Shown: positions 5,172 to 41,558 of the stretch, piece by piece
Position numbering within the stretch: the stretch's first letter is position 1
Layout of the letters: the number at the start of each line of letters is the position of its first letter
Source: an uncultured Nitrospirales bacterium
Lineage (GTDB): Bacteria; Hydrogenedentota; Hydrogenedentia; Hydrogenedentales; GCA-2746185
DNA: 64,000 bases
Assembly (NCBI GenBank): GCA_964620045.1
Contig: CAZUJL010000022.1
Coordinates: forward strand, 1,498 to 65,497
Direction: 5' to 3'
Notes under the pieces: generated by a model
What the model was told of the DNA's origin: nothing
Database searches by the model: none
Seen by the model: only the letters and a program-made list of their open reading frames with translations
Program-made: the position numbers and the translations under genes

Positions 5172-5245
5172 GTAAAATCTCCCGGTGTTCCCACCGCGTT
5201 TGCGCCATCCGCAGCGCATCATGCCCGTATAAACCAAAAGCGCGA

Positions 5246-9259: not shown

Positions 9260-9354
9260 TACTGCATTTCCCCGGTTTCCAATTGGATCTGAACCCAAAT
9301 ATACGGGTCGGGGTTCCCGAAATTCATGTTTCGCCGCGCGGGGCGGCCAGATTG

Positions 9355-11379: not shown

Positions 11380-11508
11380 TCGGCGAATGTTGTCGCGCGG
11401 TGCGATGACGAGCCCCCTTGAACGGTCGCGGAATATTCCGTCACCCGTTCCCCCTTGATTACTAACCTATTGTGCGGTAAATCGGGTTGCGTCGCAAGAG
11501 AAATCTGG

Positions 11509-12420
11509 TCAGATTAGTTTGATGGCCTTCAGACGGCTCCGCAAATCCCGCTTTTCTATGGCGGTCATTTCTCGCTGCGGTGGGCGGACGAAACCGGTCT
11601 CGTGGCCGAGCAGGCGGACCGCCTCTTTGTAGGTGGAAATCATGGCGCCGCCGCCGAGCGCGGTGCAGACTGCGTTCAGCTTGTGCTGCGTGGCGAGCGC
11701 GCGGTCGAGTTTGCCTTTCTTCACGTCGTCGTAAATCGAGAGGAAGAGCTCGGGGGTGACGTTGGCCGTCAGCGCAACCGAACCGGCGGCCCCGGTGAGG
11801 TAAGCCTGATACGAGAACTCGTCGGCGCCGTTGATCACGACGAAGCCTTTGGGTGCGCCGGCGATTACCTTGGTGAGGTGGCCGATGTCGCCGCTGCTGT
11901 CCTTCATGCCGACGATGCAGTCGAAGTCATTCGCGAGGCGGTGGATCAGCGCGGGCGACATGGTGTTGCCGGTGTAGCGCGGGATGTTGTAGAGCATCTG
12001 CGGCATTTCGGGGACGGCCTTGGCGACGTGCGCGAAGTGGCCGTAGAGCGATTCGTCGTCGTAGCGGTAGAAGCCGGGCGCGTAGATGGCGGCGGCGTGT
12101 GCGCCGATTTCGTGCGCGTGGCGCGTGAGGTCGATGGTCTGCGGCACGTCGAGGCAGCCGGTCTGCACGACGACTTTAATTTGGCGGCCGACGGCGTCCA
12201 TATATACGCAGGCGAGTTGCTTGCGCTCTTCGGCGGACATCAGCAGGCCTTCGCCGCTGGAGCCGGCCATGAAAATGCCGTGCACGCCTTTCTTCGCGAG
12301 GGTTTCGGCCCAGGCGGCGGCTTTGTCGAAATCGATCTCGGTGCCGCCCTTCTTAAACGGGGTCAGAATTGCGGGCAGAATCCCCTCAAGCTTGAACTTC
12401 ATTGCGCGCACATCCTCCAC
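11509..12420 (-). CDS. dihydrodipicolinate synthase / N-acetylneuraminate lyase family (class I aldolase) protein
   Basis: 303 aa (alternative start at Met7, 12402); TPF ... GVHGIFMAGSSGEG ... and Schiff-base lysine context GMKDSSGD typical of the DapA/NAL family. Confidence 0.75.
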   Translation of the reverse strand: MEDVRAMKFKLEGILPAILTPFKKGGTEIDFDKAAAWAETLAKKGVHGIFMAGSSGEGLLMSAEERKQLACVYMDAVGRQIKVVVQTGCLDVPQTIDLTRHAHEIGAHAAAIYAPGFYRYDDESLYGHFAHVAKAVPEMPQMLYNIPRYTGNTMSPALIHRLANDFDCIVGMKDSSGDIGHLTKVIAGAPKGFVVINGADEFSYQAYLTGAAGSVALTANVTPELFLSIYDDVKKGKLDRALATQHKLNAVCTALGGGAMISTYKEAVRLLGHETGFVRPPQREMTAIEKRDLRSRLKAIKLI

Positions 12421-17193: not shown

Positions 17194-17754
17194 GTGGATT
17201 CGGTTAGTGGCGAGGACCGCCGGGACATTGAGGCGAGCCTGCGCGGCGATGAGCGCGCGTATGCCCGGCTGGTGGATCGTTACCAAAGTTTAATCGCAGC
17301 GCAGATGTGGCGTTTCACGCGCGATCCTGTAGTTGTAGAGGAGCTCGTGCAGGAGGCGTTTGTCGAGTGTTACCTCGGCTTGGCGAAGTTTCGCGGGCAG
17401 TCGCCGTTTTTGCATTGGATTCGGCGGATCGCGACGCGGGTCGGGTATCGGCATTGGAAGATCAAGGCGCGCGACAAGCGCAAAGAAGATGCGTTGGCGC
17501 AGGAGCCGCGGCCGGACGTGCAAGCGCCGGCGGACCCGGCGCCGGCGGAAGCGGCCGCGTGGTTGCAAGGGATCTTGGCGCAGTTGCCGCCGGAAGATCG
17601 GTTGGTGCTGACGCTGCACTATTTTGAAGATTTGGATATGAACGGCATCGCGCAGCGGATGGGTTGGACGCGATCGCTGGCGAAAGTGCGCGCGTTTCGG
17701 GCGCGGAAGCGCCTGCGCGCGCTGTTGAAGGAGGCAGGGTATGACGAATTTTGA
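17194..17754 (+). CDS. ECF-type RNA polymerase sigma factor (sigma-70 family)
   Basis: 186 aa, GTG start; region 2 (YARLVDRYQSLIAAQMWRFTRD ... EELVQEAFV) and region 4 HTH (LTLHYFEDLDMNGIAQRMGWTRSLAKVRAFRARKRLR); preceded by an AT-rich intergenic region. Confidence 0.8.
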   Translation: MDSVSGEDRRDIEASLRGDERAYARLVDRYQSLIAAQMWRFTRDPVVVEELVQEAFVECYLGLAKFRGQSPFLHWIRRIATRVGYRHWKIKARDKRKEDALAQEPRPDVQAPADPAPAEAAAWLQGILAQLPPEDRLVLTLHYFEDLDMNGIAQRMGWTRSLAKVRAFRARKRLRALLKEAGYDEF

Positions 17755-18025
17755 TTCACACGATACGCAATCGCGCGATCCGTTGGCGTCGATTGCGGCG
17801 CGCGCGCGATTGGAGCCGGCGCCGGCGGTCGATGTGACGGCGGCGGTGTTGCGCCGTCTGCGCGTGGTCTCGGCGGCGGATGCGGTCGAGCGGCCGATGC
17901 TGTGGCTGGCGGCGGGCGCGTTTACGGCCGCGGCGATCATCATGTTCTTCGCGATGCCGTACATCAGCGGCGCGCTGGATCCGTTGACGGAATTCATGGC
18001 CGAAGGGACCTCGACGGTTATCTAA
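17741..18025 (+). CDS. putative anti-sigma factor (small single-pass membrane protein)
   Basis: 94 aa; overlaps the sigma factor gene by 14 nt; one TM segment (MLWLAAGAFTAAAIIMFFAMPYI); assignment by genomic context only. Confidence 0.4.
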   Translation: MTNFDSHDTQSRDPLASIAARARLEPAPAVDVTAAVLRRLRVVSAADAVERPMLWLAAGAFTAAAIIMFFAMPYISGALDPLTEFMAEGTSTVI

Positions 18026-18031
18026 GGCCGC

Positions 18032-18610
18032 ATGAGCAACGACGTCTCCCAACAGACCGCGCCGGAAGGCGCACTGCCGATGCCGCGCCGTTCCCGCATG
18101 AAGGCCTTTATGCTGGGGACGGTGTTGCTGCTTAGCGGCGTGGTGATTGGCAGCGGGCTTACATTGATCGGATTGAACCGCCGCGCGCAGGAGTTTCGCC
18201 AGCGGCCGGACATGTTTTCGAACCGCATTCTGTCGAAGATGGAAACGGATCTGGAACTGACCAAGGAACAGAAGTCGGAACTCAGCAAGATTTTCAAAGC
18301 GGCGCGCGAAGATCTCGACGACGTGCGCCGCCAGCATCGCGTTCAGGCACAGGCGTTCTTCCGCGATTTCCACGATCAGGTTGCGCAAGTGTTGACTGTG
18401 AAGCAGCAGGGTCAGTGGGAAGAATGGTGGAAGCGCGCGAGAGAGCGTGCGTTCCAGGAACGCGGCGGTCCCGGTGGTCCGAGCGGACAGGCTGGTCCCG
18501 GCGGACAAGGCGGGAAGCCGAAGCCGGAGAATCAAAAAGAAGGCGGGAAGCCTGAAAAGGCACCGCCACCGCCGAACGATCAGGCTCCTCCCCCGCCGCC
18601 GGAACAATAG
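18032..18610 (+). CDS. periplasmic LTXXQ-motif (Spy/CpxP/ZraP-like) stress protein with Pro/Gly-rich tail
   Basis: TM/signal segment, then LELTKEQKSELSKIF (LTXXQ motif) and helical Arg/Gln-rich region; C-terminal GGPGGPSGQAGPGGQGGKPKPE low-complexity tail. Confidence 0.5.
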   Translation: MSNDVSQQTAPEGALPMPRRSRMKAFMLGTVLLLSGVVIGSGLTLIGLNRRAQEFRQRPDMFSNRILSKMETDLELTKEQKSELSKIFKAAREDLDDVRRQHRVQAQAFFRDFHDQVAQVLTVKQQGQWEEWWKRARERAFQERGGPGGPSGQAGPGGQGGKPKPENQKEGGKPEKAPPPPNDQAPPPPPEQ

Positions 18611-19607: not shown

Positions 19608-20957
19608 GTGAAGCTGCGATCCACGATGGGATGGTGTGCGGGATTTGCCGCGCTGACGGTGACGATCGGCGCGTGGGCGGCGGATGCTCCCGACGGCGCG
19701 CGGAAGATCACGTTTACGAAAGACATCCTGCCGATTCTCCAGGAGAACTGCCAGGAATGTCACCGGCCGGGCGGCGACACGGTCGCGGGCGTGGGCGCGC
19801 CGATGGCGTTGATCACGTACGACGAAGTGCGGCCGTGGGCGAAGGCGATGGCCGAGAAAGTGACGGCGAAGGAAATGCCGCCGTGGGACGCGACGGACGC
19901 GACGCACGGACTATTCGTCAACGAGCGCAGCCTGTCGGCGGAGCAGATCGATACATTCGTGAAGTGGGCGGCGAGTGGCGCGGCTCGCGGCAACCCGAGC
20001 GATGCGCCGCCGGTGAAAGAATTGGCGGACAACGACGGCTGGGTGATGGGCAAGCCCGATCTTGAAGTTTATTTGGAAGACCCGTATTGGGTGAAAGACG
20101 AGATTGTCGACATTCAACCGATGTTCCAGATCAAGATTACGAAAGAGATGCTGCCGGAGCCGCGCTGGATTCAGGCGGCGGAGTGCCGCCCGGCGACGTC
20201 GATGGTGCATCACACGTTCAGCACCGTAACGGCGCCCGCGGTGGAAGGGCATCCGGAGGAAATGTTTGCGCTGGTGTCCGCGGCGGCGGGTGAAGATCCG
20301 CAGCAGTTCCCGGACGGTTTCGGCAATCTGCTGCGGCCGGGTTCGGTGGTGAATATTTCGATGCACTACCACAAGGAGCCGGGACCGGGCACGGGCAAGT
20401 GGGACCGCTCGGGCGTGGGCATCAAGTTTTATCCGAAGGGCCGCGAGATTGAGCACAAGGTGAACTGGGGCCCGATCGGCGACAACGGCATCGGGAACGC
20501 GGGCTTCGAAGTGCCGCCGAATCACGCGAGCTGGCCGGTGGGCTGGAGCGGAACCTTTGATGACGACACGCTGCTGCTGTCGCTGCACCCGCACATGCAT
20601 TACCGCGGCAAGAGCATGACGTACACGGCGTATTACCCCGACGGCACGACCGAAATGCTGCTCGACGTTGACCGGTATAACTTCGCGTGGCAGACGATTT
20701 ACTTCTATAAACAACCGAAGCTCATTCCGGCGGGTACGCGCATTGACGCGATCGCGGTGTTTGATAATTCGGAAAGCGCGAAGGCCGCGTGGCCGGAGAT
20801 CGATACCTCGCAGCCGGTGCGGTTCGGCGAGGCGTCGACGGACGAGATGATGATCCCGTATGTGTCGTGGACGCATGCTGACCCGGTTGCGGGGCAGGCG
20901 TATCGCGACAAGAACATGGCGCACCGCAAGCGGGTGCTGACGGAAGGCGTGGAGTAA
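19608..20957 (+). CDS. secreted mono-haem cytochrome c fused to PHM/DBH-like copper monooxygenase domain (paralogue 2 of 4)
   Basis: GTG start with GGGAGA RBS 6 nt upstream (alternative ATG 19626); CQECH plus MPPW; MVHH ... MHYHKEPGPGTGKWD ... HPHMHYRGK ... FAWQ ... STDEMMIPY. Confidence 0.6.
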   Translation: MKLRSTMGWCAGFAALTVTIGAWAADAPDGARKITFTKDILPILQENCQECHRPGGDTVAGVGAPMALITYDEVRPWAKAMAEKVTAKEMPPWDATDATHGLFVNERSLSAEQIDTFVKWAASGAARGNPSDAPPVKELADNDGWVMGKPDLEVYLEDPYWVKDEIVDIQPMFQIKITKEMLPEPRWIQAAECRPATSMVHHTFSTVTAPAVEGHPEEMFALVSAAAGEDPQQFPDGFGNLLRPGSVVNISMHYHKEPGPGTGKWDRSGVGIKFYPKGREIEHKVNWGPIGDNGIGNAGFEVPPNHASWPVGWSGTFDDDTLLLSLHPHMHYRGKSMTYTAYYPDGTTEMLLDVDRYNFAWQTIYFYKQPKLIPAGTRIDAIAVFDNSESAKAAWPEIDTSQPVRFGEASTDEMMIPYVSWTHADPVAGQAYRDKNMAHRKRVLTEGVE

Positions 20958-20980
20958 GGTTGCTGGTCAACGAGAATTAC

Positions 20981-21013
20981 GCGGCAAACCTTCGCGGTTT
21001 GCCGCGTTTTTTG
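20981..21013 (+). terminator. intrinsic terminator
   Basis: Stem gcggcaaacc / ggtttgccgc with 5-nt loop, followed by gttttttg; 24 nt after the stop of the preceding gene. Confidence 0.65.
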
Positions 21014-21108
21014 TCCGTACACTCGGATTGAATGCGGATGGGTGTTGATACCGGCCGGAAGGTCGCGATATCGTGTTGCGGCTGAGTTCTGGAGGTCATT
21101 CCCGGTCT

Positions 21109-21855
21109 ATGAAGTACGCGATGTTGTTCGTGTGCGCGGCGAGTTACATTTTGTCAGGCGCGGCGGTGGCGGCCGAGCCGCGTCAGCCCGGCGAGAATGC
21201 CGAGGCGGCGGCGGTGAAGAATCCGCACGAGGCGAATGAGCAGTCGATTCAACAGGGTAAGCTGCAGTATGAGCGCTACTGCGTGACGTGCCACGCGCTG
21301 GACGGATCGGGCAAGACGGACATGACGGAGATGCTCGATGTGCCGCCGCAGACCTTTGCGGACAACGAGTGGAAGTATGGCAAGACCGATGGCGAGCTGT
21401 TCAGCGTAATCAAGGATGGCGGCCAGAACGGCATGCAGGGTTTCGTCGGCAAGATTCCCGACGATCGGATTTGGCACGTGATTAATTATATCCGGACTTT
21501 TTCGAAGGCGGGTGAAGGCGACGCGGGCGCGGCGGTGGCGGAAACGGACGTGCCGGAGAACCCGATCGCGACGTCACCGGAATCGGTGGCGCTGGGCAAG
21601 CAGTACTACGCTCGATTCTGTGTGAAGTGCCACGGATTGAATGGCCGGGGCGATACGGAGATGCGCGAATTTTTGAGCACGCATCCGAGTGATTTTACGG
21701 ATGGCGAGTGGAAGTACGGCAACAAGGACGGCAATATTTTTAACGTCATCAAGAACGGCACCGAATACGACATGACGGCCTTTAAAGACACCGTGGACGA
21801 CGAGAAAATCTGGCACATGGTGAATTATCTTCGGAGCTTCGAAAAGAAAAAATAG
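21109..21855 (+). CDS. secreted dihaem c-type cytochrome
   Basis: Start at ATG 21109 (GGAGGT RBS upstream); signal peptide; two CxxCH motifs (CVTCH, CVKCH), each followed by a repeated module ending WH(V/M)(I/V)NY(I/L)R(T/S)F. Confidence 0.8.
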
Positions 21856-21886
21856 CGCTTCGGGGCGCTGGCGGAGGACAGACACG

Positions 21887-23839
21887 ATGAGCGGAAAGCG
21901 CACGGAAAAACAATCCAAGCCATCGAGCGAAAGCCGGCGTGACTTCATCAAAACCGCGGCGCTCGGCGCGGGTCTGTCGGCATTGGCGGGCGGCGCCGCA
22001 AAAGCAGCCACTCCAGAAACGGGCGACCACGCAATCTCGCGTCCGCAACAGTTCACGGACCTGGCGTCGGTGCCACCACCGGATGATTTTGCGTTTCCCG
22101 CGTCGGGCGCGCAGATTTTTGCCGAGGCGTGCAAGAAAGAGGGACTGGCGGCGCTGTTCTGCTGCCCCGGCAACTACAGCATCATCAGCGCGCTGGCGAA
22201 TGCCGGCATCCCGAGTTTCGGCGGGCGCACCGAGGGTCCGATGTGCTCGGCGGCGGATGCGTTTATCCGCGTGACGGGCGAGATCGCCGCGGCCTCGGGC
22301 ACGGAAGGTCCCGGATTCACGAACATGATTTGCGCGATTGCGGCGGCGAACTCCTGCCGCACGCCGTTGCTGGTGCTGGCGAGCAACATGTCGCTGCGCG
22401 GCGATGACACCGAGCGCAACTTGCAGCGCGGCTACCAACAACCGACGACCGAGGGCATCAAGAAGTACGGCAAGCGCATTGTGACGAAAGAGCGCGTGCA
22501 CGAATACGCGGGCTATGCGTTCCGCCAACTGAAGACGGGGGTGCCGGGACCGGTCCATCTGGATTTCGTGGAAGAAGCCGCGGGACGCGAATCGACGATC
22601 GAGAGCGCCGCGGATCTGGACGCGTACTGGGGACTTGAGCAATACCGGACGATGGCGCGGCCGCATCCGGATCCGAAAGAGATTGATCGCGCGCTCGATT
22701 TGATTAAGCAGGCGCAACGTCCGCTCATTGTCGCGAGCACGGGCGTGTTCTACAGCAAGGCGTGGGACGCGCTGAAGGCGTTTGCGGAAAAGGCGCAGAT
22801 TCCCGTGGCGGAATCCGGCCCGACCCGCGGGCATTTCTCGGACGGTCACCCACTCTCGGCGAGCACGGCGCCGACGGCGATTTACAGCGTGGATTTGGCC
22901 ATCTTCGTCGGGCAGTACTGCATGCCGAGCGTGGGCGAGTATCCGTTTGACGTGAACTGCAAATACATTCGCATCGAGCCGGAGGGCCGCGACATTGGCC
23001 GCAACATTCCGATCGATGTGGGTATCGTGAGCTGCGAGAAGGCCGCGCTCGAAGCGCTGGCGGACAAGTGCCCCGCGATGAAGCACGATGCGTGGGTGGC
23101 GGAAGTGGCCGCGGCGCGCGAGGCGTTTGAAAAAGAAAACGACGAGCACTATGCGCTCGGCAAGGGCTACACGGATGCCGTGCACCCGGCCGTGATCGCT
23201 ACGGAACTCGCGAACTTCCTCTACAAGGGAAAACTGCCGCCCGATCAGACAACCGTGGTGTCGGGTGGGTTCGGCATTGCAAAGTACACGCGGCGGCGGC
23301 TGCGCGCGTTCCGTCCGGGCCAGATCTGCAACGGCGCCTATCAGTACGGATCGATCGGGCCGGACGTGGGCTATACCTTTGGCGTGGGCGTGGCGAAAGA
23401 CCTGGGCGTCGGCGTGCAGAAGCCGTATCAGGGCGGGCCGGTGGTGGCGGTCACGGGTGACGCGGGCTTTGCCTATTCCGCGTTTGAGATCGACACGATG
23501 GCGAAGTATCGAATTCCGGGCATCGTGATCGTGTACAACAACAATGCGTGGGGCACGTGGGCGGGGTATTCGAAGATGCCGCGTGCCGGCCACATCCATC
23601 TGTTCCAGGAAAACCTGCGGTACGACAAGGTGGCCGAGGGTCTGGGCGGACACGGCGAATATGTGACGTCGCCGGATCAGTTCACGCCGGCGCTGGAGCG
23701 GTGCTGGCAGATCGCGGTGAGCGAGCGTAAGCCGTGCGTGATCAACTGTCAGGCGAAAAAGGAATTCTGGATCGCGCGCGAGTACGCACCGGGCATGCTG
23801 GGCCAGGTCGAGCCGGGCGCAATGTCCTACAACCACTAG
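21887..23839 (+). CDS. Tat-exported thiamine-diphosphate-dependent enzyme (acetolactate synthase / pyruvate oxidase / oxalyl-CoA decarboxylase superfamily)
   Basis: Twin-arginine motif [19 protein letters not shown]; N-terminal pyrimidine-binding domain (FCCPGN ... [33 protein letters not shown]) and C-terminal ThDP motif [33 protein letters not shown]. Confidence 0.75.
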
Positions 23840-23902
23840 CTTACTTTCTTTTCGACTTACTTTCTTTTCGAGAAAAGGAAGTAAGCAAAGAAAAGCCGTT
23901 GT

Positions 23903-23935
23903 GGGTGGCGCGAATGCGCCACCCATTTAATTTTG
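23903..23935 (+). terminator. intrinsic terminator after the ThDP enzyme gene
   Basis: Stem gggtggcgc / gcgccaccc with loop gaat, followed by atttaattttg; preceded at 23839-23893 by a 15-nt tandem direct repeat (cttactttcttttcg x2) that can also pair with the downstream gaaaaggaagtaag. Confidence 0.5.
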
Positions 23936-23962: not shown

Positions 23963-24469
23963 ATGGCTGCGAAGACAAAGCGGACAGCAAAAACTAAACC
24001 TGCGAAAGATTATGTGGGCGTGGTGCGGGAGTTGTTGGCGCCGCTTGCGCAGCGCGGGGTCATCCGCAGTCTGGATGAGCGCACTGTTCGCGGGAAGACT
24101 GAGTTCCGGTTCATGTGGCTGCTGGATCGGCGATTCACGATGGTGTTCGATCCGGAGAACGGGAAAATCACGTTGAAGGATTTGTTGCCGAACGTTTCGG
24201 TGAAGTCGGATGTGGCGGAGGCCGTGCGCGGATGGGTCGCGGGTCGCGCCGAGAAGTCGCTGCCTCCCCACCGCCGTCTCGATCCCGCCAAAATTACCGC
24301 GCAGGTGTCCGTGCGCGGCGACATGCTGAGCATCGCGTTCGACGTGAAACGCAACCAGTACGCCTACGCCGTGCCCAAGGTGCTGAACTTCTGTAACGAA
24401 CTTTTTGGGCACCTCAGCATGTACCAGGTCCAATATATGTGGGCGCACATGGGTTTGCCGGAAGAGTAG
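23963..24469 (+). CDS. hypothetical protein
   Basis: 168 aa, Lys-rich N-terminus, no recognisable motif. Confidence 0.3.
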   Translation: MAAKTKRTAKTKPAKDYVGVVRELLAPLAQRGVIRSLDERTVRGKTEFRFMWLLDRRFTMVFDPENGKITLKDLLPNVSVKSDVAEAVRGWVAGRAEKSLPPHRRLDPAKITAQVSVRGDMLSIAFDVKRNQYAYAVPKVLNFCNELFGHLSMYQVQYMWAHMGLPEE

Positions 24470-24487: not shown

Positions 24488-24575
24488 GCCGTCCCTACGG
24501 GACTGATTGGGTGATGCGGGCATGGACCCCGGCGTTGAAACGCCGGGCTACTATCATCTGCCCCTCCGGGGCAAT
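24488..24575. repeat. structured intergenic repeat element, copy A (three hairpins)
   Basis: Shares cgtccctacgggact (hairpin gtccc-tac-gggac) and a terminal gcccctc(c/t)ggggc hairpin with a second copy at 41470-41558, at nearly identical spacing (69 vs 71 nt); the central hairpin differs in sequence but not in structure (ccccggcg-ttgaaa-cgccgggc here). Confidence 0.5.
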
Positions 24576-24808: not shown

Positions 24809-26131
24809 GTGATGGGTTGGCAAGCGCGACAATGGTGCGGCGCGGCAGCGGCCGCGATGGCGATTTCGGCGTCGTGGGCACACGCGGATGCGCCGGCCTC
24901 GGTAACTTTCAGCAAAGACGTCCTCCCGATCTTCCAAAAAAATTGCCAGGACTGCCATCGCCCCTCCGGCGCGAATTTGTCGGGCATGGTGGCGCCGATG
25001 TCACTCACCTCGTACGAAGAAGCGCGTCCTTGGGCGAAGGCAATTGTCACCGCGGTGACCACCAAAAAAATGCCGCCGTGGTTTGCGTCAGCGGAACAAC
25101 ACGGCCAGTTCGAACTCGAGCGCGGCCTTACGCAGGACGAGATCGACACGATCGTGAAATGGGCTGAAACGGGTGCGAAACGCGGCAACCCGGAAGACGC
25201 GCCTGCACCGCTTGAGTTCCCGTCGTCTGAGGGTTGGGTGATGGGCGAACCGGATATTGTGATTCCTCTTCCGGAGCCGTATTGGGTTGCGGACGAAGTC
25301 GAGGATATTCAGCCGAGCTTCGATCTGATCTTGACCGAAGACATGCTTTCCGAAGACAAGTGGGTGAAGTGGATCGAATTCCGGCCGGGCTGCAAGATCA
25401 TTCACCACGGCGGCGCGAGCACACAGCCGCTGGGCCCCGACGGCAAGCCGGTGGTCGATCCGATCAGCGGCGGCAAGCTGATCGGCACGGCGCAGGGCGA
25501 TGGTCCGGATGTGTGGCCGGAAGGTTTCGGCAAACTCGTGCGCAAGGGTTCGCGCTTCAGCTTCAACATTCACTACAACAAAGAACCGGGGCCGGGCACG
25601 GGCGTGTGGGACCGGTCGATGATCGCGATCAAGTGGCAGACGACGCCGGTGAAACATGTGGTGCGTTCGGCGGGCGTGAGCTCGCGCGGCTGGGAAATTC
25701 CGCCGCACACGGCGGACTGGACGGTCGGCGCGGCGAAGACCTTTGACGAAGACGCGTACATCATCAACATGATGCCGCACATGCACTGGCGCGGGACGAA
25801 GGCGAAGTATGAGCTGGTGTATCCCGATGGCAAGCGCGAGACGCTGCTGGATGTGCCGGGCTACAACTTCGCGTGGCAATTGACCTACACGTACAAAGAG
25901 CCGAAGTTTGCGCCCGCGGGCAGCCGGCTTGAAGTGACGATGGTGTATGACAACTCGGACGGCAATGCGTTCATCAAGGATCCGGAGCGTCCGATCAGCT
26001 TTGGGTCGATGACCAAGGACGAGATGAATATCGGCTGGACGGAGTACGCGAATGCCGCGCCGATTCATGACATTTTGAACCACGACTTTGGCGTCGAGGG
26101 AACCGGCGTCGAAGATTTGGATCCGGAATGA
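24809..26131 (+). CDS. secreted mono-haem cytochrome c fused to PHM/DBH-like copper monooxygenase domain (paralogue 3 of 4)
   Basis: GGAGGG RBS; CQDCH plus MPPW; KIIHH ... NIHYNKEPGPGTGVWD ... MPHMHWRGTK ... FAWQ ... MTKDEMNIGW; overlaps paralogue 4 by 4 nt (ATGA). Confidence 0.6.
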   Translation: MMGWQARQWCGAAAAAMAISASWAHADAPASVTFSKDVLPIFQKNCQDCHRPSGANLSGMVAPMSLTSYEEARPWAKAIVTAVTTKKMPPWFASAEQHGQFELERGLTQDEIDTIVKWAETGAKRGNPEDAPAPLEFPSSEGWVMGEPDIVIPLPEPYWVADEVEDIQPSFDLILTEDMLSEDKWVKWIEFRPGCKIIHHGGASTQPLGPDGKPVVDPISGGKLIGTAQGDGPDVWPEGFGKLVRKGSRFSFNIHYNKEPGPGTGVWDRSMIAIKWQTTPVKHVVRSAGVSSRGWEIPPHTADWTVGAAKTFDEDAYIINMMPHMHWRGTKAKYELVYPDGKRETLLDVPGYNFAWQLTYTYKEPKFAPAGSRLEVTMVYDNSDGNAFIKDPERPISFGSMTKDEMNIGWTEYANAAPIHDILNHDFGVEGTGVEDLDPE

Positions 26132-27453
26132 GCAACGGCTTTTTGCCGCAGGGAGATTTGGGAATGGTGCTACGGTTTGGTGTGGCGGGTGTGCTCGCGG
26201 CGGGCGCGATTTGTGCCGGCGCGGCGGCAGACGAGAAGGTCACGTTCACGAAAGACGTGCTTCCGATTCTGCAAGAGAACTGCGTGAAGTGTCACCGGCC
26301 CGGCGGCGACAACATTGCCGGCATGGTGGCGCCGATGTCGCTGATGACGTACGACGAAGTGCGTCCGTGGGCGAAGGCGGTGGCGAAGGCGGTAACCGAG
26401 AAGAAGATGCCGCCGTGGTTCACGACCGAGCAGTTCCACGGCATTTTCGAGAACGAGCGCGTGCTGAGCGAGCAGGAAGTGCAAACGATTGTTTCCTGGG
26501 CGAGCAGCGGCGCGGCGCGCGGCAATCCGCAGGATGCGCCGGCCCCGGTGGTGTTTGAAGACACGGGCGGCTGGCTGACGGGTACGCCGGACCTCGTGGT
26601 GAAAATGCCGGAGCCGTACTTCGTGAAGGACGACGTGGAAGACATCTACGTCAATTTTGTGACCGACCCGATTTCCGAAGCGGACCTGCCGAAGGACCGC
26701 TGGCTGCGCGCGATTGAGTGGCGCGGACAGAGCGAAGTCGTGCATCACATTGTGGGCGGCGCGAGCGTGAAAGACGCGAACGGCGACCAGCTTTACTACG
26801 AACTCGGCTCCATTGCGCCGGGCGAAGAGGGCATGCTGTTCCCCGAGGGCCACGGCAAACTGTTGCCGAAGGGATCGAAGGTCCATTTCCAGATGCACTA
26901 CCACAAGGAAAGCGGACCGGGGACGGGCACGTGGGACCAGTCGATGGTCTCGTTCCGCTTCTGGGACGAAGAGAAGGACCCGAAGATCCAGTACGCGATG
27001 GCGCGCTCGGGCATTTCGAACCACACGTTTGAGATTCCGCCGAACCACGAAGCGTGGCCGGTGGGCGCGGCGATCACGTTTGACGAAGACACGACGATCC
27101 ACGCGCTGCACCCGCACATGCACCTGCGCGGGAAGGACGCGCGGTACATCGCCTACTACCCCGACGGCTCGCAGGAAGAGTTGCTGTGGGTGCCGAATTT
27201 CGACTTCAACTGGCAATTGGACTACACGTACGCCGAGCCGAAGAAAGTGCCGGCGGGTACGCGCGTGGAATTCACGGCGCACTACGACAACTCGCCGGAC
27301 AATATCTACAACCCGGACCCGACCATTTCGATGGCGTGGGGCGGGCCGACGACGATGGAAATGATGATTGGGTATATCGCCTTCTGCAATACGGAACCGA
27401 GCGATAACCCCATGCCGGCGGCGCGCAAGGCGACGGGCGAAGCCTCGGAGTGA
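26128..27453 (+). CDS. secreted mono-haem cytochrome c fused to PHM/DBH-like copper monooxygenase domain (paralogue 4 of 4)
   Basis: Translationally coupled to paralogue 3 (alternative ATG 26164); CVKCH plus MPPW; EVVHH ... QMHYHKESGPGTGTWD ... HPHMHLRGKD ... FNWQ ... TTMEMMIGY. Confidence 0.6.
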   Translation: MSNGFLPQGDLGMVLRFGVAGVLAAGAICAGAAADEKVTFTKDVLPILQENCVKCHRPGGDNIAGMVAPMSLMTYDEVRPWAKAVAKAVTEKKMPPWFTTEQFHGIFENERVLSEQEVQTIVSWASSGAARGNPQDAPAPVVFEDTGGWLTGTPDLVVKMPEPYFVKDDVEDIYVNFVTDPISEADLPKDRWLRAIEWRGQSEVVHHIVGGASVKDANGDQLYYELGSIAPGEEGMLFPEGHGKLLPKGSKVHFQMHYHKESGPGTGTWDQSMVSFRFWDEEKDPKIQYAMARSGISNHTFEIPPNHEAWPVGAAITFDEDTTIHALHPHMHLRGKDARYIAYYPDGSQEELLWVPNFDFNWQLDYTYAEPKKVPAGTRVEFTAHYDNSPDNIYNPDPTISMAWGGPTTMEMMIGYIAFCNTEPSDNPMPAARKATGEASE

Positions 27454-27477: not shown

Positions 27478-27513
27478 GCCCCGGAATCCAATGTGGTTCC
27501 GGGGCTTTCGTTT
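27478..27513 (+). terminator. intrinsic terminator
   Basis: Stem gccccggaa / ttccggggc, 10-nt loop, followed by tttcgttt; 25 nt after the paralogue 4 stop. Confidence 0.55.
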
Positions 27514-27567
27514 GGTAGAGTGGCAACGTTTCCTATTCCAGTGGCGCGAAGCCACGCGGCTGCGCAA

Positions 27568-28263
27568 ATGAGGACATTCGACATGACGAATACGCGGAAG
27601 GTGTGGGCGATCGTGGGCGCGGTGCTGCTGTGCGTGGAAGCACAGGTTTGTTTCGCGCAACAACAACCGGCGCAGACGACGACTCCGCCGGCGGACGTGG
27701 CGGCGGGCGGCGAGGATGCGCCGCTGGAAGGCGCGAGCAATGCCGCGGGCGGAACTGCGGAGGCACAAGCGCGCGCGCGACGTCGCATGCAAACCACGAC
27801 GACGGCGGCGCTGAAGATCGGCGACAAGAACATCAGCATGCTGGCGGCGATCCTGAAAGCGGACGCGCCGGACTATGCGTTGATCGACAAACTTAAAGAA
27901 GGCGACGTGCTGCAGATTACGCGCAGCCAGGCGATCAAGTTGAAGACCGATTTGCCGCTCACCTTCGGCGATGTGACGCTGAAAACCGAGAACGTCGCGA
28001 AGGGTTATGCCGGCGTGTACAGCTTGTGGATCAAGAAGACCGCGGACGGCTGGGCGTTTGTGTTCAACCAGAAGCCGGACGTATGGGGCACGATGTATGA
28101 CGCGGCCGCGAATGTTGGCGAGGTGAAGGTTGAACATGGCGCGCCGGAAAAGACCGACGAAGGCCTGAAGTTTGCGATCGAGCAGCAGGGCACGGACGGC
28201 GGTACGATCAAAATCTCGTGGGGCGCGCACCAGTGGTCCGCCAAGTTCGCCATCGCCCAGTGA
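27568..28263 (+). CDS. secreted protein with DUF2911-like domain (paralogue of 2751..3764)
   Basis: Start moved to MRTFDMTNTRK (27568) because the ORF-track start at 27493 overlaps the upstream terminator; signal peptide; C-terminal domain homologous to the 2751..3764 product; 3' end overlaps the PQQ dehydrogenase gene. Confidence 0.5.
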   Translation: MRTFDMTNTRKVWAIVGAVLLCVEAQVCFAQQQPAQTTTPPADVAAGGEDAPLEGASNAAGGTAEAQARARRRMQTTTTAALKIGDKNISMLAAILKADAPDYALIDKLKEGDVLQITRSQAIKLKTDLPLTFGDVTLKTENVAKGYAGVYSLWIKKTADGWAFVFNQKPDVWGTMYDAAANVGEVKVEHGAPEKTDEGLKFAIEQQGTDGGTIKISWGAHQWSAKFAIAQ

Positions 28264-30281
28264 GCCGCCTCGGGATCGTTTGCACGGTACTCCTCGCCTG
28301 CTTCGCGGGCGCCACGGTGGCGTTTGCGGAAGGCTACGACACCTCCGCGGGCGAATGGCCCACCTACGGCGGCGACCTGTATAGCCACAAGTATTCGCCG
28401 CTGGACCAGATCAACGGGGAGAACTTCTCCAAGCTGCAGGTCGTGTGGCGGTGGAAATCCGCCGACGAATGGATCAGCAAAACGGTATCCGGCGGCGAAT
28501 GGTGGTCGAAGTCCACGCCGGTGTTCGACGACTTACAAAAAGACAATCCCAACCGCTGGCGCGGCGGGCTTGTGCCCCGGCTTGCGGGATTCAAGGCGAC
28601 GCCGCTGATGGTGGGCGGCAAGTTGTACGTCACGACCGCGCTGTACCAAGCGGCGGCGATCGACGCGAAGACCGGCGAGACGCTGTGGGTCTTCAATCCG
28701 AAGAGCTACGAAACCGGCACGCCGACGATGAGCATCTATTGGAACCATCGCGGGGCGGCGTATTGGACGGACGGCACAGACGAGCGCATTTTCTGGGGCA
28801 CGGGCGACGCGTATCTGTGGTGCGTGGATGCGAAGACCGGGCGGCCGTGCGCGGATTTCGGCGACGGCGGCCGCGTGGACATTGCGAAGGATGTGCCGCG
28901 CGCGGAGCGCGACAAGCGCGACTATTTGAACGCGCTGCTGTACTCGTGCGCCTCTCCCCCACTCGTGGTGAACAACGTTGTGATCACGGGGCAGTCGATC
29001 GCCGATCGCCGCGTAGTGAAGGAAGCGCCGCCGGGCTATGTGCGCGGTTGGGATGCGAAGACCGGCGCGTTGAAGTGGACGTTCAACAGCGTGCCGCAGG
29101 CGGGCGAGTTCGGCAACGAGACCTGGGAAAACGGCTCGGCCGAATACTCCGGCAATTCGAATGTGTGGACGCAGATGAGCGCCGACCCGGAACTCGGGCT
29201 GGTGTATTTGCCGACGGGCACGCCGACGAACGACTTTTACGGCGGGCATCGCCTGGGCGATAACCTGTTTGCCGAATGCGTGATCGCGGTGAACGTCGAG
29301 ACCGGCGAGCGCGTGTGGCATTTCCAGACCGTGCACCATGGCCTGTGGGACTACGACAATCCCGCGGCGCCGAACCTTGTGGATATCGTCGTGGACGGCA
29401 AGCCGATCAAGGCCGTCGCGCAGGTGACGAAGCAAGGGTTTGTATTTGCGTTCGATCGCGCGACCGGCAAGCCCATCTGGCCAATTGAAGAGAAGCCGGT
29501 GATTACGGAATCAAACATTCCAGGCGAGCGCCCGGCGGCGACGCAGCCGATGCCGACGAAACCGCTTGCGTTCGAATACCAGGGCGTGAAAGAAGACGAC
29601 CTGATCGACTTTACGCCGGAGCTGCACCAGTTGGCGCTGGACATTGTGAAGGAGTACACGATCGGGCCGCTGTTTACGCCGCCGATGCTGGGCAAGGCGA
29701 CGATCATGCGACCGGGTCTCGGCGGTGGCGCGAACTGGACCGGCGCGGCGGTGGATCCGGAGACGGGCGTCTTGTATGTGCCGTCGGTGGCTGGATACTC
29801 GGTCGTGCATTTCTTCACGCCGGGCGCGGACGTAAACGGGAACCTCGACTATACGCACGGCGCGCGCGGCGGACTGGCGCAGGGCCCCAAGGGCCTGCCG
29901 CTATTCAAACCGCCGTACTCGCGCGTGACGGCGATCGATATGAACACGGGCGAGCACCTGTGGTGGGTGCCGACGGGCAATGGTGACAACGTGCGGAACC
30001 ATCCGGACTTGAAGGCGCTGAACCTGCCGCCGGTGGGTGGCGATGGCGAGACCGGGCCGCTGCTGACGAAGACGGTGCTTGTGATCGGCCTTGCGCCGAC
30101 CGAAGGCGCGCCGACGCTGACCGCGTACGACAAGAAAACCGGCGCGGTGCTGGGTTCAGTCGAGCTGCCCGGCAAACCGGTGAGCACGCCGATGACGTAT
30201 CTCTACGACGGCAAGCAATACATCGCGCTCACCTGCGGCGGAGCGACGCCGGAATTGGTCGCGCTCGCGCTTCCTGAATAG
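28261..30281 (+). CDS. soluble periplasmic PQQ-dependent dehydrogenase (eight-bladed quinoprotein propeller)
   Basis: GTG start at 28261 gives signal peptide VSRLGIVCTVLLACFAGATVAFA (ORF track starts 28218); WPTYGGDLYSHKYSPLDQINGENFSKLQVVWRW N-terminal signature; repeated DAKTG-x-x-W motifs; HHGLWDYD motif as in quinoprotein glucose/alcohol dehydrogenases. Confidence 0.75.
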
Positions 30282-36883: not shown

Positions 36884-36970
36884 CACCTGCGCCGCTTCCG
36901 AGAAGGCTGCTATGCTAGGGGTTTGGCCGCGCCCTGCGCGGACCTATTCATCCGGGAGGCATCGCACGCC

Positions 36971-41469: not shown

Positions 41470-41558
41470 TCGTCCCTACGGGACTTGATGCCGAGGTCGC
41501 TATCGGCATACCCACCGCTGAAGCGGTGGGCTAAATTCTGTCGCCCCTCTGGGGCTCA
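41470..41558. repeat. structured intergenic repeat element, copy B (three hairpins)
   Basis: cgtccctacgggact ... cccaccgc-tgaa-gcggtggg ... gcccctctggggc; same architecture and spacing as copy A at 24488-24575; followed at 41581-41619 by a 16-nt direct repeat containing the 12-bp palindrome gcaatgcattgc. Confidence 0.5.

Follow-up and report, generated by a model that had tools for sequence, protein, structure and literature searches.

Catalysis by ThDP is regarded as cytoplasmic or organellar chemistry, and the cofactors of cargo carried by the twin-arginine (Tat) pathway are, to our knowledge, molybdopterin, FeS clusters, flavin, copper, nickel-iron centres and NADP, with ThDP not among them. 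One-electron acceptors can oxidise ThDP enamines: transketolase and pyruvate decarboxylase are assayed with ferricyanide in this way, and pyruvate:ferredoxin oxidoreductase uses a radical mechanism in which the ThDP enamine undergoes one-electron oxidation; we know of no natural ThDP enzyme that directly reduces cytochrome c. A full-text literature search returned no description of a natural Tat-exported or periplasmic ThDP enzyme: the ThDP enzyme in PMC4103992 has no predicted signal peptide, PMC3917463 merely proposes engineered secretion of ThDP enzymes, and a 2026 preprint on PQQ does not mention thiamine. No experimental study of the ThDP family described here was found in the searchable literature either.

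The window, meaning the whole stretch of 64,000 nucleotides that was analysed, carries a gene for a ThDP-dependent enzyme with a Tat signal next to a gene for a c-type cytochrome. The locus represents a widespread, so far uncharacterised module of three linked genes, for a ThDP enzyme that is probably exported by Tat, a c-type cytochrome and a small protein that would act as a helper in the cytoplasm. Conservation of the Tat signal and of the linkage to both partner genes suggests that the module serves a periplasmic oxidation not described before. A cluster look-up for names or accessions left the proteins of the window nameless in every source.

The ThDP enzyme and its signal peptide

The features of the ThDP gene are as follows.

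21873..21878, forward strand: Shine-Dalgarno sequence GGAGGA, 8 nt ahead of the ATG of the ThDP gene, by direct reading
21887..23839, forward strand: Tat-signal ThDP-dependent enzyme, 650 aa, ATG start; Pfam TPP_enzyme_N, TPP_enzyme_M and TPP_enzyme_C
21887..22006, forward strand: twin-arginine signal peptide, residues 1-40, with RR at 17-18, an uncharged stretch at 23-38 and AKA; TIGR01409
22103..22429, forward strand: pyrimidine-binding (PYR) domain with the catalytic Glu E116; PF02776, residues 73-181
22682..23059, forward strand: central Rossmann-type domain; PF00205, residues 266-391
23369..23749, forward strand: diphosphate-binding (PP) domain with GDAG-X23-NNN; PF02775, residues 495-621

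The earlier note had read both halves of a ThDP enzyme in this frame, and the Pfam search bears this out, with TPP_enzyme_N at 70.5 bits, TPP_enzyme_M at 79.6 and TPP_enzyme_C at 66.9, each above its gathering score and in the order PYR, central, PP that characterises the POX/ALS/OXC ('decarboxylase') superfamily. E116 is invariant in 32 family members and is the counterpart, by alignment, of the Glu of RHE in Oxc, PoxB and IlvI of E. coli. The diphosphate motif is G524-D525-A526-G527 followed by N551-N552-N553, which fits the diphosphate/Mg2+ pattern GDG-X(24-27)-NN (G524-D525-A526, 24 residues between, N551-N552); G524, D525, N551 and N552 are invariant when family members and the E. coli enzymes are aligned. 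The AF2 model of the enzyme has a pTM of 0.79. Compared with OXC, HACL and BAL the family has in addition the Tat signal, a conserved linker of about 30 residues and an 11-residue insertion ahead of GDAG; it also ends in an invariant C-terminal tail, EPG[C/A]MSYNH, and its invariant residues hold no CxxC or cluster-type Cys pattern.

Among enzymes of solved structure, those closest to the family are oxalyl-CoA decarboxylase, 2-hydroxyacyl-CoA lyase and benzaldehyde lyase, at 21-25% identity; these types give the top PDB sequence matches (137 bits), and OXC, HACS and BAL are the best Foldseek matches of the model (TMq 0.67-0.70, E about 1e-30). NCBIfam returned 52 matching models, and among the 25 listed none comes near its cut-off. 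Scores fall short for OXC (NF006721, 157 of 557 bits; TIGR03254, 142 of 739), for HACL (NF058623, 131 of 600), for acetolactate synthase and glyoxylate carboligase (TIGR00118, 159 of 538; NF004516, 202 of 587; NF008431, 136 of 791) and for pyruvate oxidase (NF006377, 107 of 742), with 57 bits to the L. plantarum POX chains. One position, Y183, is kept in the alignment opposite an OXC residue which we take to be Tyr120.

The earlier note had raised a central FAD-binding domain as a point to settle, and the outcome is divided: a full central domain is there (PF00205), and two features of the E. coli flavin relatives are not. The 9-10-residue insertion common to PoxB, Gcl and IlvI is missing in the family, which has the same deletion as Oxc, and the G-x-[RQ]-F-x-x-R motif of these three enzymes is absent, with GQYCMP in its place. 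Searched alone, the central domain (residues 251-425) scores 60.6 bits to HACL/OXC, 39 to Gcl and 31 to POX, and thus looks more like the ADP-binding type. With a central domain more like the ADP-binding type and both features missing, the enzyme is probably flavin-free, and any electron transfer would therefore run without FAD.

At the N-terminus, S16-R17-R18-D-F-I-K22 is followed by the uncharged stretch and by A38-K39-A40, with cleavage predicted before A41, and the curated Tat HMM TIGR01409 scores 19.5 bits on residues 16-37 against a cut-off of 16.7. Conservation was counted in the 120 homologues listed, which are 61-100% identical. All 120 hold xRRx[FLIVMAW][LIVMFA] inside the first 60 residues, 99 fit the stricter [ST]RRxF[LIMV], and AxA occurs 12-42 residues past RR in 116; the uncharged stretch after RR has a median of 18 residues and a mean hydropathy of 1.17. 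The N-terminal 60 residues are kept as protein across the whole set (120 of 120). A start downstream of the RR motif was rejected on this conservation and on the position of the Shine-Dalgarno sequence, and the annotated ATG appears a credible start. The textbook Tat motif described in the earlier note is thus upheld.

As c-type cytochromes mature only outside the cytoplasm, the conserved cytochrome partner of the ThDP gene also suggests that the enzyme is exported, which agrees with the export proposed in the earlier note. Chance is ruled out as the source of the RR signal and of the cytochrome adjacency, because signal and neighbourhood are both conserved. Elsewhere in the window, a Gfo/Idh/MocA protein (36923-38242) gives a weak TAT_signal match of 20.2 bits, slightly below the Pfam cut-off of 22.7; this apparent Tat use in the same genome was counted as support for export.

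Linkage to a cytochrome and a small protein

The partner genes and the signals around them are the following.

20979..21007, forward strand: terminator-like hairpin, 12-bp stem with 8 GC pairs, then TTTTTTG
21045..21074, forward strand: weak sigma-70-like promoter match ahead of the cytochrome gene, TTGATA-18-TATCGT, 9/12 positions
21109..21855, forward strand: secreted dihaem class-I cytochrome c, 248 aa, with two Cytochrome_CBB3/Cytochrom_C stretches (Pfam) and a Sec-type N-terminus
23901..23926, forward strand: terminator-like hairpin in the interval between the ThDP gene and the small gene, 11-bp stem with 8 GC pairs, then TTAATTTTGT
23963..24469, forward strand: conserved small protein, 168 aa, without signal peptide; orthologues adjoin the ThDP gene at other loci

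Relatives of the ThDP enzyme are encoded in at least 565 species-level genomes, whose labels include Hydrogenedentota, Acidobacteriota (Blastocatellia, Bryobacterales, Vicinamibacterales), Gammaproteobacteria, Verrucomicrobiota and Planctomycetia. Linkage was assessed at 43 well-flanked loci, defined by at least 3 kb upstream and at least 5 kb downstream of the ThDP gene. A cytochrome c gene lies on the same strand within 5 kb at 42 of these 43, in several phyla, and cytochrome and small protein are both found within that distance and on that strand at 40. Ten loci have the cytochrome upstream and 32 have it downstream; gene order thus varies among phyla, and the linkage of the ThDP gene with its partners persists. 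The gaps are few: L065 is without both partners, L084 and L086 are without the small protein, and L049 is without a nearby cytochrome. The last of these is Methylobacterium sp. J-030, listed as an ordinary genome record and not as a MAG.

Other periplasmic redox genes account for the cytochrome less readily. A PQQ dehydrogenase or haem/copper protein occurs within 10 kb at only 27 of the 43 loci, and about 15 loci have the cytochrome and no other obvious client. Because the linkage holds where such genes are absent, the cytochrome is assigned, on gene neighbourhood, to the ThDP gene and not to its other neighbours; the partnership put forward in the earlier note is in this way strengthened. 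The dihaem cytochrome is present as that note had said, with the motifs CVTCH and CVKCH, and its gene ends 31 nt ahead of the ThDP start, where 30 had been given. Orthologues from other loci have one or two haem sites, and the part that aligns is the C-terminal domain, so by alignment it is the C-terminal haem domain that is conserved as the neighbour of the ThDP gene.

On the 5' side, the hairpin at 20979..21007 probably closes the upstream gene and would bound the cytochrome-ThDP unit. Sigma-70-like matches in the region overall are not in excess over shuffled sequence. A search around the operon for known RNAs, a TPP riboswitch among them, found none but two Acido-Lenti-1 motifs, which are not conserved at eight related loci.

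The small protein is a third conserved component, which the earlier note had overlooked. It has no Pfam or NCBIfam family match, and an exhaustive profile search of 1.84 billion representatives gave 343 relatives in a family of about 155 aa. Among the 150 listed, 149 are stand-alone proteins of 109-214 aa, and no fusion to a partner was accepted as proof of a physical link; the one candidate, the 575-aa protein P0218 with a truncated small domain and a haem-motif region, is likely an assembly or frameshift chimera. The AF2 model (pLDDT 87.9) predicts an alpha-beta4-alpha-beta2-alpha-alpha fold. Its best PDB fold matches include ExsC, InvB, SycE, Spa15 and YbjN, and these are weak (Foldseek E 0.016-0.3, TMq at most 0.45); structures of TorD/DmsD or NapD type are not among the top 50, and the protein has no cofactor-type residues. 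On its modelled fold, it is probably an export or assembly chaperone for the ThDP enzyme.

The hairpin at 23901..23926 parts the small gene from the ThDP gene here and as such counts against the favoured reading. It is specific to this genome; at most other loci the two genes are near-contiguous, with gaps of 10-25 nt or overlaps (e.g., L003, L013, L022 and L024). In L005 and L006 it is the cytochrome gene that the small gene overlaps, by 17 nt, and the two are likely translationally coupled there.

Proposed electron route and its alternatives

The reading we favour, as somewhat more probable than its denial, is that the ThDP enzyme, exported by Tat and probably free of flavin, carries out the oxidation of a carbonyl compound in the periplasm, with cytochrome c as electron acceptor and the small protein as probable chaperone. 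The 650-aa enzyme would fold and bind ThDP-Mg2+ in the cytoplasm, probably dimerising there, while the helper of about 155 aa would hold the enzyme or its signal peptide until assembly is done. The Tat pathway would then carry it across the membrane, with the signal cleaved off behind AKA (residue 40). Once exported, the enzyme would use its ThDP ylide to attack a periplasmic carbonyl substrate, which may be a 2-oxoacid, an aldehyde or an alpha-hydroxyketone, and the enamine intermediate would arise by decarboxylation, deprotonation or C-C cleavage. The partner cytochrome c would oxidise this enamine in two one-electron steps, without a flavin; the acyl-ThDP would be hydrolysed to a carboxylic acid, and the reduced cytochrome would hand its electrons on to a terminal oxidase or to further haem proteins of the periplasm. 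A haem-copper oxidase (COX1/COX2) is encoded in the window at 72-2650 and is a possible other end for the electrons.

Since CoA thioesters are not expected in the periplasm, an acyl-CoA such as oxalyl-CoA is an unlikely substrate there. The substrate could plausibly be a product of the PQQ-type dehydrogenases that often adjoin the module. A PQQ-dependent D-lactate dehydrogenase converts D-lactate to pyruvate at the periplasmic face (PMC13230246), a precedent for the formation of 2-oxoacids in the periplasm. The neighbours of the module in the window are listed below.

19608..20957, forward strand: haem-c domain fused to a PHM/DBH-like two-copper domain, paralogue A, with CxxCH and the invariant HH, H, HxH and M
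24809..27453, forward strand: two more tandem haem-c/PHM-like paralogues (24809-26131 and 26128-27453), 45-49% identical to paralogue A and with the same invariant residues
27493-28263: DUF2911 gene ahead of the PQQ-type dehydrogenase
28218..30281, forward strand: soluble PQQ-type dehydrogenase of the glucose/quinate/shikimate clade; PF01011 at 615 bits, TIGR03074 at 389 bits, below cut-off

Of 80 loci, 37 have a PQQ dehydrogenase cluster; gammaproteobacterial ones of the L004 kind carry a PQQ dehydrogenase fused to a cytochrome between the ThDP and small genes. Further neighbours are partly conserved in the same 80 loci: the haem/copper protein at 29, an unknown 188-aa protein at 20, a glyoxalase/VOC-family protein at 18 and a luciferase-like protein at 14. 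Reading a substrate from the neighbours was tried and rejected, as the partly conserved genes beyond the cytochrome and the small protein give no pathway. Members of the haem-c/PHM-like family lie within 10 kb of the ThDP gene at 21 of the 43 well-flanked loci. As copper monooxygenases need two electrons per turnover, the module may, more speculatively, be a periplasmic electron source for these proteins, which are found at about half of the loci.

One competing account keeps the enzyme in the periplasm as a non-redox decarboxylase, lyase or carboligase, for example one condensing or cleaving aldehydes or hydroxyketones that PQQ dehydrogenases form there, and leaves the cytochrome to serve those dehydrogenases or the haem/copper proteins. 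It draws strength from the non-oxidative nature of the solved enzymes nearest to the family (OXC, HACL/HACS, benzaldehyde lyase, formolase and glyoxylate carboligase), which also tells against the favoured reading. The sequence comparison showed no flavin signature either, and PQQ dehydrogenase clusters lie inside the operon in L004 among others. We nevertheless judge it unlikely: the cytochrome adjoins the ThDP gene at all but one of the 43 loci, the pair stays together despite changes of order among phyla, and the dehydrogenases and haem/copper proteins that would have to be its clients are near at only 27, with none obvious at about 15. A flavoenzyme resembling PoxB or pyruvate oxidase but moved to the periplasm, in which two electrons would go from hydroxyalkyl-ThDP to FAD in the central domain and from there to cytochrome c, would explain both the complete central domain and the choice of Tat, by which flavoproteins usually travel, and PoxB and POX are the sole members of the fold known to feed a respiratory chain. 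The central domain itself makes this improbable, as it scores only half as high to POX as to the ADP-binding HACL/OXC, has neither the insertion nor the G-x-[RQ]-F-x-x-R motif, shares the deletion of Oxc and has GQYCMP where the motif would stand; the score to NF006377 is also far below cut-off.

That the RR motif is no export signal, and that the enzyme is cytoplasmic through a downstream start or an N-terminus with another purpose, finds an in-frame GTG at codon 62 in its favour but must contend with the complete Tat layout of the conserved N-terminal 60 residues in each homologue listed, a TIGR01409 score above cut-off, a Shine-Dalgarno sequence ahead of the annotated ATG and a conserved partner that is an extracytoplasmic cytochrome c, and we give it almost no credence. 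A further alternative concerns solely the role of the small protein, which could be a structural subunit that leaves the cell as a Tat hitchhiker with the ThDP enzyme and acts in the periplasm in docking to the cytochrome or in regulation. Tat hitchhiking of signal-less subunits is established, e.g., in PaoABC, and the small protein comes without a signal peptide, stands alone among the relatives listed (one likely chimera aside) and appears coupled in translation to the cytochrome gene in L005 and L006. Since its best fold matches are cytoplasmic secretion chaperones and it lacks cofactor-type residues, this role is rather unlikely, if less so than any of the alternatives above.

The favoured reading, oxidation by a flavin-free ThDP enzyme with cytochrome c as acceptor, has a bolder form to which we hold only tentatively: this would be the first natural extracytoplasmic ThDP dehydrogenase, free of flavin and FeS, whose enamine is oxidised directly by a dedicated c-type cytochrome that leads to the respiratory chain, and which is matured by a new class of Tat chaperone with a secretion-chaperone-like fold. 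If true, ThDP would join the list of Tat-cargo cofactors, periplasmic 'incomplete oxidation' respiration would gain a new enzyme class, and the orphan family of about 155 aa would receive a role. It would also provide a natural case of direct electron transfer from enamine to haem, relevant to bioelectrocatalysis and to ThDP radical chemistry. The module occurs commonly in Acidobacteriota, Hydrogenedentota and marine Gammaproteobacteria, known for the most part from metagenomes, and may therefore account for carbon oxidation in soil and ocean by a route that has so far escaped notice.

Comparison with known systems

The ThDP family has the same three-domain fold as OXC, HACL/HACS and BAL/formolase, with a central domain apparently of the flavin-free type. 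OXC, HACL and BAL themselves are cytoplasmic or peroxisomal, use acyl-CoA or are plain lyases, and have no cytochrome partner. E. coli PoxB, formerly called 'pyruvate dehydrogenase (cytochrome)', belongs to the same superfamily, and as it oxidises hydroxyalkyl-ThDP and feeds the respiratory chain it may serve as a functional analogy for the proposed ThDP-cytochrome module. PoxB, however, works at the cytoplasmic face with FAD and reduces quinone, whereas the ThDP family has a Tat signal and its presumed acceptor, linked to it, is a soluble c-type cytochrome. Pyruvate:ferredoxin oxidoreductase is a precedent for flavin-free, stepwise one-electron oxidation of hydroxyalkyl-ThDP via a radical, but it has an unrelated domain organisation and FeS acceptors and is CoA-dependent, cytoplasmic and oxygen-sensitive, and the ThDP family carries no Cys-cluster motif.

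The small protein resembles Tat proofreading chaperones (TorD/DmsD, NapD) in being a signal-less protein encoded beside a cofactor-carrying Tat substrate, of which NapD with NapA is an example. Its predicted fold gives its best PDB matches, all of them weak (E at least 0.016), to secretion chaperones of type III (ExsC, SycE, InvB and Spa15) and to YbjN. Unlike TorD/DmsD, NapD and the type III chaperones, it has no sequence family match of any kind.

A parallel in layout is offered by the flavoprotein-cytochrome c dehydrogenases of acetic acid bacteria and by PaoABC, whose features are established knowledge. In both, a cofactor-loaded catalytic subunit is exported folded by Tat, and sugars, acids or aldehydes are oxidised outside the cytoplasm; the acetic acid bacterial enzymes are likewise encoded with a small protein and a c-type cytochrome. 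Their cofactor is FAD, or molybdopterin with FeS and FAD, and never ThDP. In the flavoprotein complexes the Tat signal is on the small subunit and the cytochrome is a membrane-bound trihaem protein, whereas in the ThDP module the Tat signal is on the large subunit, the cytochrome is soluble and mono- or dihaem, and the small protein has no signal peptide.

The ThDP-dependent enzyme and its twin-arginine signal

The 650-aa protein has the domain architecture and catalytic motifs of a ThDP-dependent enzyme together with a conserved Tat signal, and its gene is linked to those of an extracytoplasmic cytochrome c and a small orphan protein. The ORF lies precisely where the earlier note had placed it, with the same length and start. 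The relevant features are as follows (window positions; domains by Pfam, above the gathering score).

72-2650, +: haem-copper oxidase genes at the window start, COX1 (569 aa) and then a COX2-like gene (290 aa)
20979-21007: hairpin closing the gene upstream of the cytochrome gene
21109-21855, +: dihaem cytochrome c, 248 aa, with Sec-type N-terminus, two CxxCH motifs and two cytochrome c domains
21873-21878, +: Shine-Dalgarno sequence GGAGGA, 8 nt ahead of the ThDP-gene ATG
21887-23839, +: ThDP-dependent enzyme, 650 aa, ATG start; TPP_enzyme_N at residues 73-181, TPP_enzyme_M at 266-391, TPP_enzyme_C at 495-621
23901-23926: strong terminator-like hairpin between the ThDP gene and the small gene, unusual for the module
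23963-24469, +: small protein, 168 aa, with a basic, variable N-terminus and no signal peptide

All three POX/ALS/OXC-type domains being above gathering scores, the claimed ThDP-enzyme identity is secure. The diphosphate motif is G524-D525-A526-G527 ... N551-N552-N553, and the cofactor-activating glutamate is E116, which is invariant in the family alignment (n=32) and aligns with the Glu of the RHE motif in E. coli Oxc, PoxB and IlvI. In the alignment with the E. coli enzymes Gcl carries Val at this position, a known trait of that enzyme; its appearance in the expected column indicates that the alignment is in register. The AlphaFold model (pLDDT 74.5, pTM 0.79) has four low-confidence segments: the signal peptide, residues 168-198, residues 555-575 and the C-terminal tail. 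The last three are rich in invariant or near-invariant residues, and may take on order only upon dimerisation, cofactor binding or contact with a partner.

The N-terminus opens with a polar, basic region followed by S-R-R-D-F-I-K (residues 16-22) and an uncharged Ala/Gly/Leu-rich stretch ending in A-K-A (residues 38-40), with cleavage predicted before A41. The curated model TIGR01409 (TAT_signal_seq) matches residues 16-37 at 19.5 bits against a cut-off of 16.7, supporting the Tat motif that the earlier note had read by eye. More than 120 homologues, with identities of 61-100%, came from a search of 5.8 billion proteins, and motifs were counted in 120 of them: an RR motif is found within the first 60 residues in 120/120 (median position of the pair, 20), the fuller [ST]RRxF[LIMV] in 99, and AxA 12-42 residues past RR in 116. 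The uncharged stretch has a median length of 18 and averages 1.17 on the Kyte-Doolittle hydropathy scale. Homologue lengths are nearly all 639-680 aa (one partial entry has 618 aa), indicating that the family as a whole has the N-terminal extension. The refuting condition set in the earlier note, a true start downstream of RR, does not hold, as the N-terminal region is conserved as protein and a ribosome-binding site precedes the annotated ATG; a mis-called start on a cytoplasmic enzyme is effectively excluded. Export of the enzyme is very likely. Elsewhere in the window, a Gfo/Idh/MocA-family oxidoreductase (36923-38242, +) scores 19.3 bits with TIGR01409 (cut-off 16.7) and weakly matches Pfam TAT_signal; judging from sequence, it is probably a second Tat-exported enzyme with a nucleotide cofactor.

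Linkage of the three genes across genomes

The adjoining secreted dihaem cytochrome c is as had been claimed, but its stop codon is separated from the ThDP start codon by 31 nt rather than 30. With a hairpin at either end, at 20979-21007 and 23901-23926, the cytochrome and ThDP genes resemble a two-gene unit in the window. Directly past the ThDP stop (23839-23900) the intergenic structure is unusual: a tandem direct repeat, two copies of cttactttcttttcga, is followed by the near-complementary stretch gaaaaggaagtaag and then the terminator hairpin.

In five loci from different lineages, a c-type cytochrome gene close to the ThDP gene and a 152-168-aa ORF without a Pfam family were found in 5/5. 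The small proteins are homologous to that of the window (32-42% identity, 29 invariant columns), and the cytochromes match the window dihaem protein in its C-terminal haem domain. When one genome per GTDB species was scanned, at least 565 genomes, most of the module carriers being metagenome-assembled, were seen to encode a relative of the ThDP enzyme. The best 80 loci were kept, labelled Hydrogenedentota, Blastocatellia, Bryobacterales, Vicinamibacterales, Pseudomonadales, Porticoccaceae, Opitutales, Limisphaerales and Planctomycetia, the automatic labels being doubtful for a few MAGs. Neighbourhoods were counted by tblastn with the window proteins in the 43 of these loci whose flanks reach at least 3 kb upstream and 5 kb downstream. 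A cytochrome lies within 5 kb of the ThDP gene in 42/43 and both cytochrome and small protein do so in 40/43, always on the ThDP-gene strand, yet the order changes: the cytochrome is upstream in 10 loci (Hydrogenedentota, Gammaproteobacteria, Bryobacterales) and downstream, past the small gene, in 32 (mainly Blastocatellia). Independent all-against-all clustering of neighbour ORFs gave the same two families as top clusters (66/80 and 65/80 loci). That the genes stay linked while being rearranged from phylum to phylum argues strongly for a joint function of all three. A PQQ dehydrogenase or haem/copper protein occurs within 10 kb in only 27/43 loci, so the cytochrome is not simply the partner of those neighbours. 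The cytochrome partnership proposed in the earlier note is quite probably functional.

The sole record among the best 80 loci not labelled as a MAG, Methylobacterium sp. J-030 (L049; NZ_JAKSYM010000171.1, 9962-12413), combines a ThDP gene with Tat signal (SRRSFLR) with the small gene, and no cytochrome c gene is nearby. Around them lie, among others, genes for an MFS transporter, a DUF6166 protein, an amidohydrolase and an NMT1-like binding protein, and the locus would be a useful entry point for experiments. In two acidobacterial loci (L005 10056-10759, L006 10800-11518), an 80-87-aa ORF and a Fic-domain gene stand between the ThDP and small genes, which looks like a toxin-antitoxin-like pair landed within the module.

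The window also holds four paralogues of ~440 aa, 44-53% identical (3918-5237, -; 19608-20957, +; 24809-26131, +; 26128-27453, +), in which an N-terminal haem-c domain (CxxCH) is joined to a domain with weak Pfam Cu2_monoox_C matches, and a larger relative of 1138 aa (5882-9298, -). All six copper-ligand positions of peptidylglycine/dopamine monooxygenases (HH, H, HxH, M) are invariant in eight members, and a member lies within 10 kb of the module in 21/43 loci; these proteins may be copper monooxygenases of the periplasm that are fed by cytochromes. Two DUF2911 paralogues, 38% identical (27493-28263, +; 2751-3764, -), each adjoin a haem/copper protein gene; one is directly ahead of a PQQ dehydrogenase, a pair seen again in L003, L008, L012 and L036. 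The Acido-Lenti-1 RNA motif (RF01687) occurs at 24528-24573 (+) and 41511-41556 (+), at 43.2 and 56.7 bits (gathering score 37), both intergenic, just 3' of the small gene and of a DUF420 gene; eight related loci gave no match, and the motif is thus not part of the module. As read from translation, three + strand genes lie upstream of the cluster: 17194-17754 resembles an ECF-type sigma factor gene; 17741-18025 is short, has a possible membrane segment and may specify an anti-sigma factor; and 18032-18610 encodes a secreted protein of 192 aa whose tail is rich in proline.

The small protein

The small protein has no match in Pfam or NCBIfam. An exhaustive profile search of 1.84 billion representatives gave 343 relatives, and 149/150 among the matches listed are stand-alone proteins of 109-214 aa. 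The one long relative among them, the metagenomic P0218 (575 aa), matches a truncated small domain at residues 6-133 and carries two CxxCH (CMFCH, CSVCH) in the remainder; a chimera from assembly or frameshift is one possible explanation, a rare haem-protein fusion the other. The AlphaFold model is confident (pLDDT 87.9; topology alpha-beta4-alpha-beta2-alpha-alpha). Foldseek against the PDB gave weak matches only, none at E <=0.001, the best mostly of secretion-chaperone-type fold: PA14_16140 (E 0.016, probability 0.98) and ExsC (E 0.022), then InvB, SycE, Spa15 and YbjN. The fold assignment is accordingly weak. As with NapD/NapA and TorD/TorA, a signal-less protein is encoded beside a cofactor-carrying Tat substrate, and by this analogy and its predicted fold a role as export or assembly chaperone is favoured. 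The alternative of a co-exported 'hitchhiker' subunit is to be taken seriously; in L005 and L006 the small and cytochrome genes share 17 nt, as either role would allow.

Cofactors and candidate mechanism

Among the NCBIfam matches listed for the ThDP enzyme, none comes near its cut-off: the best is ALS-like (202 of 587 bits), and others are oxalyl-CoA decarboxylase (157/557), glyoxylate carboligase (136/791), 2-hydroxyacyl-CoA lyase (131/600) and pyruvate oxidase (107/742). The nearest solved structures by sequence are oxalyl-CoA decarboxylases and 2-hydroxyacyl-CoA lyases/synthases (137 bits), then BbmA and benzaldehyde lyase/formolase (about 120-127), with weaker matches to glyoxylate carboligase (86), AHAS (72) and pyruvate oxidase (57); Foldseek with the AlphaFold model ranks the same enzymes top (TMq 0.67-0.70, 21-25% identity). 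Homologues are named at source only 'thiamine pyrophosphate-binding protein' or 'acetolactate synthase large subunit-like', and cluster look-up gave no name for the window enzyme, cytochrome or small protein.

The earlier note had asked whether a central FAD-binding domain is present; a full central domain is, but the features common to flavin-dependent relatives are absent. Residues 251-425 searched alone match ADP-binding HACL/OXC best (60.6 bits), with FAD-binding Gcl at 39. At motif level, E. coli poxB, gcl, oxc and ilvI were aligned with six Tat-family members: PoxB, Gcl and IlvI share a 9-10-residue insertion (MTGLIGFS, MVGLQTAHRY, MLGMHGTY) and a G-x-[R/Q]-F-x-x-R motif (GTQFPYR, GNRFANR, GVRFDDR), whereas Oxc and the Tat family are both without the insertion, and the family has an invariant G-Q-Y-C-M-P in place of the motif. 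The 32-member alignment contains no iron-sulfur-type Cys pattern, C82 being the only invariant Cys. The enzyme is probably without flavin and iron-sulfur clusters, and a PoxB-like flavoenzyme is disfavoured, the central domain reaching only 31 bits to POX and the whole protein falling far short of the pyruvate oxidase model. A periplasmic, non-redox lyase or carboligase agrees with the nearest relatives, yet would leave the near-universal cytochrome linkage unexplained where no other redox gene is nearby.

ThDP enamines are oxidised by one-electron acceptors, as in ferricyanide assays of transketolase and pyruvate decarboxylase, and pyruvate:ferredoxin oxidoreductase oxidises its enamine via a radical intermediate. 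In the oxidative mechanism proposed here, ThDP-Mg2+ would be loaded in the cytoplasm and the enzyme exported folded; in the periplasm it would form the usual enamine from a carbonyl substrate and give the cytochrome two electrons, singly, the acyl-ThDP then being hydrolysed to the acid. This flavin-free mechanism as stated has an even chance of being correct, and the account of the module as a whole, a comparative and predictive one, is slightly more likely correct than not. The substrate source is likely the PQQ-type dehydrogenase family that accompanies the module (37/80 loci); gammaproteobacterial loci, L004 among them, encode a form with a fused cytochrome domain, its gene being sited between the ThDP and small genes. 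A PQQ dehydrogenase of this broad family converts D-lactate to pyruvate at the periplasmic face (PMC13230246). The haem-copper oxidase of the window could accept electrons from the cytochrome, and may serve the periplasmic cytochromes as terminal oxidase; in L003, too, the cluster has a COX1 gene on its downstream side.

Full-text literature searches turned up no account of a ThDP enzyme that is naturally Tat-exported or periplasmic. The ThDP fold, the Tat signal and the class-I cytochrome c are each of known kind; what appears undescribed is their combination, in which the exported cofactor is ThDP and both the cytochrome and the orphan helper are dedicated. The logic of the module is similar to that of Tat-exported dehydrogenase-cytochrome systems.
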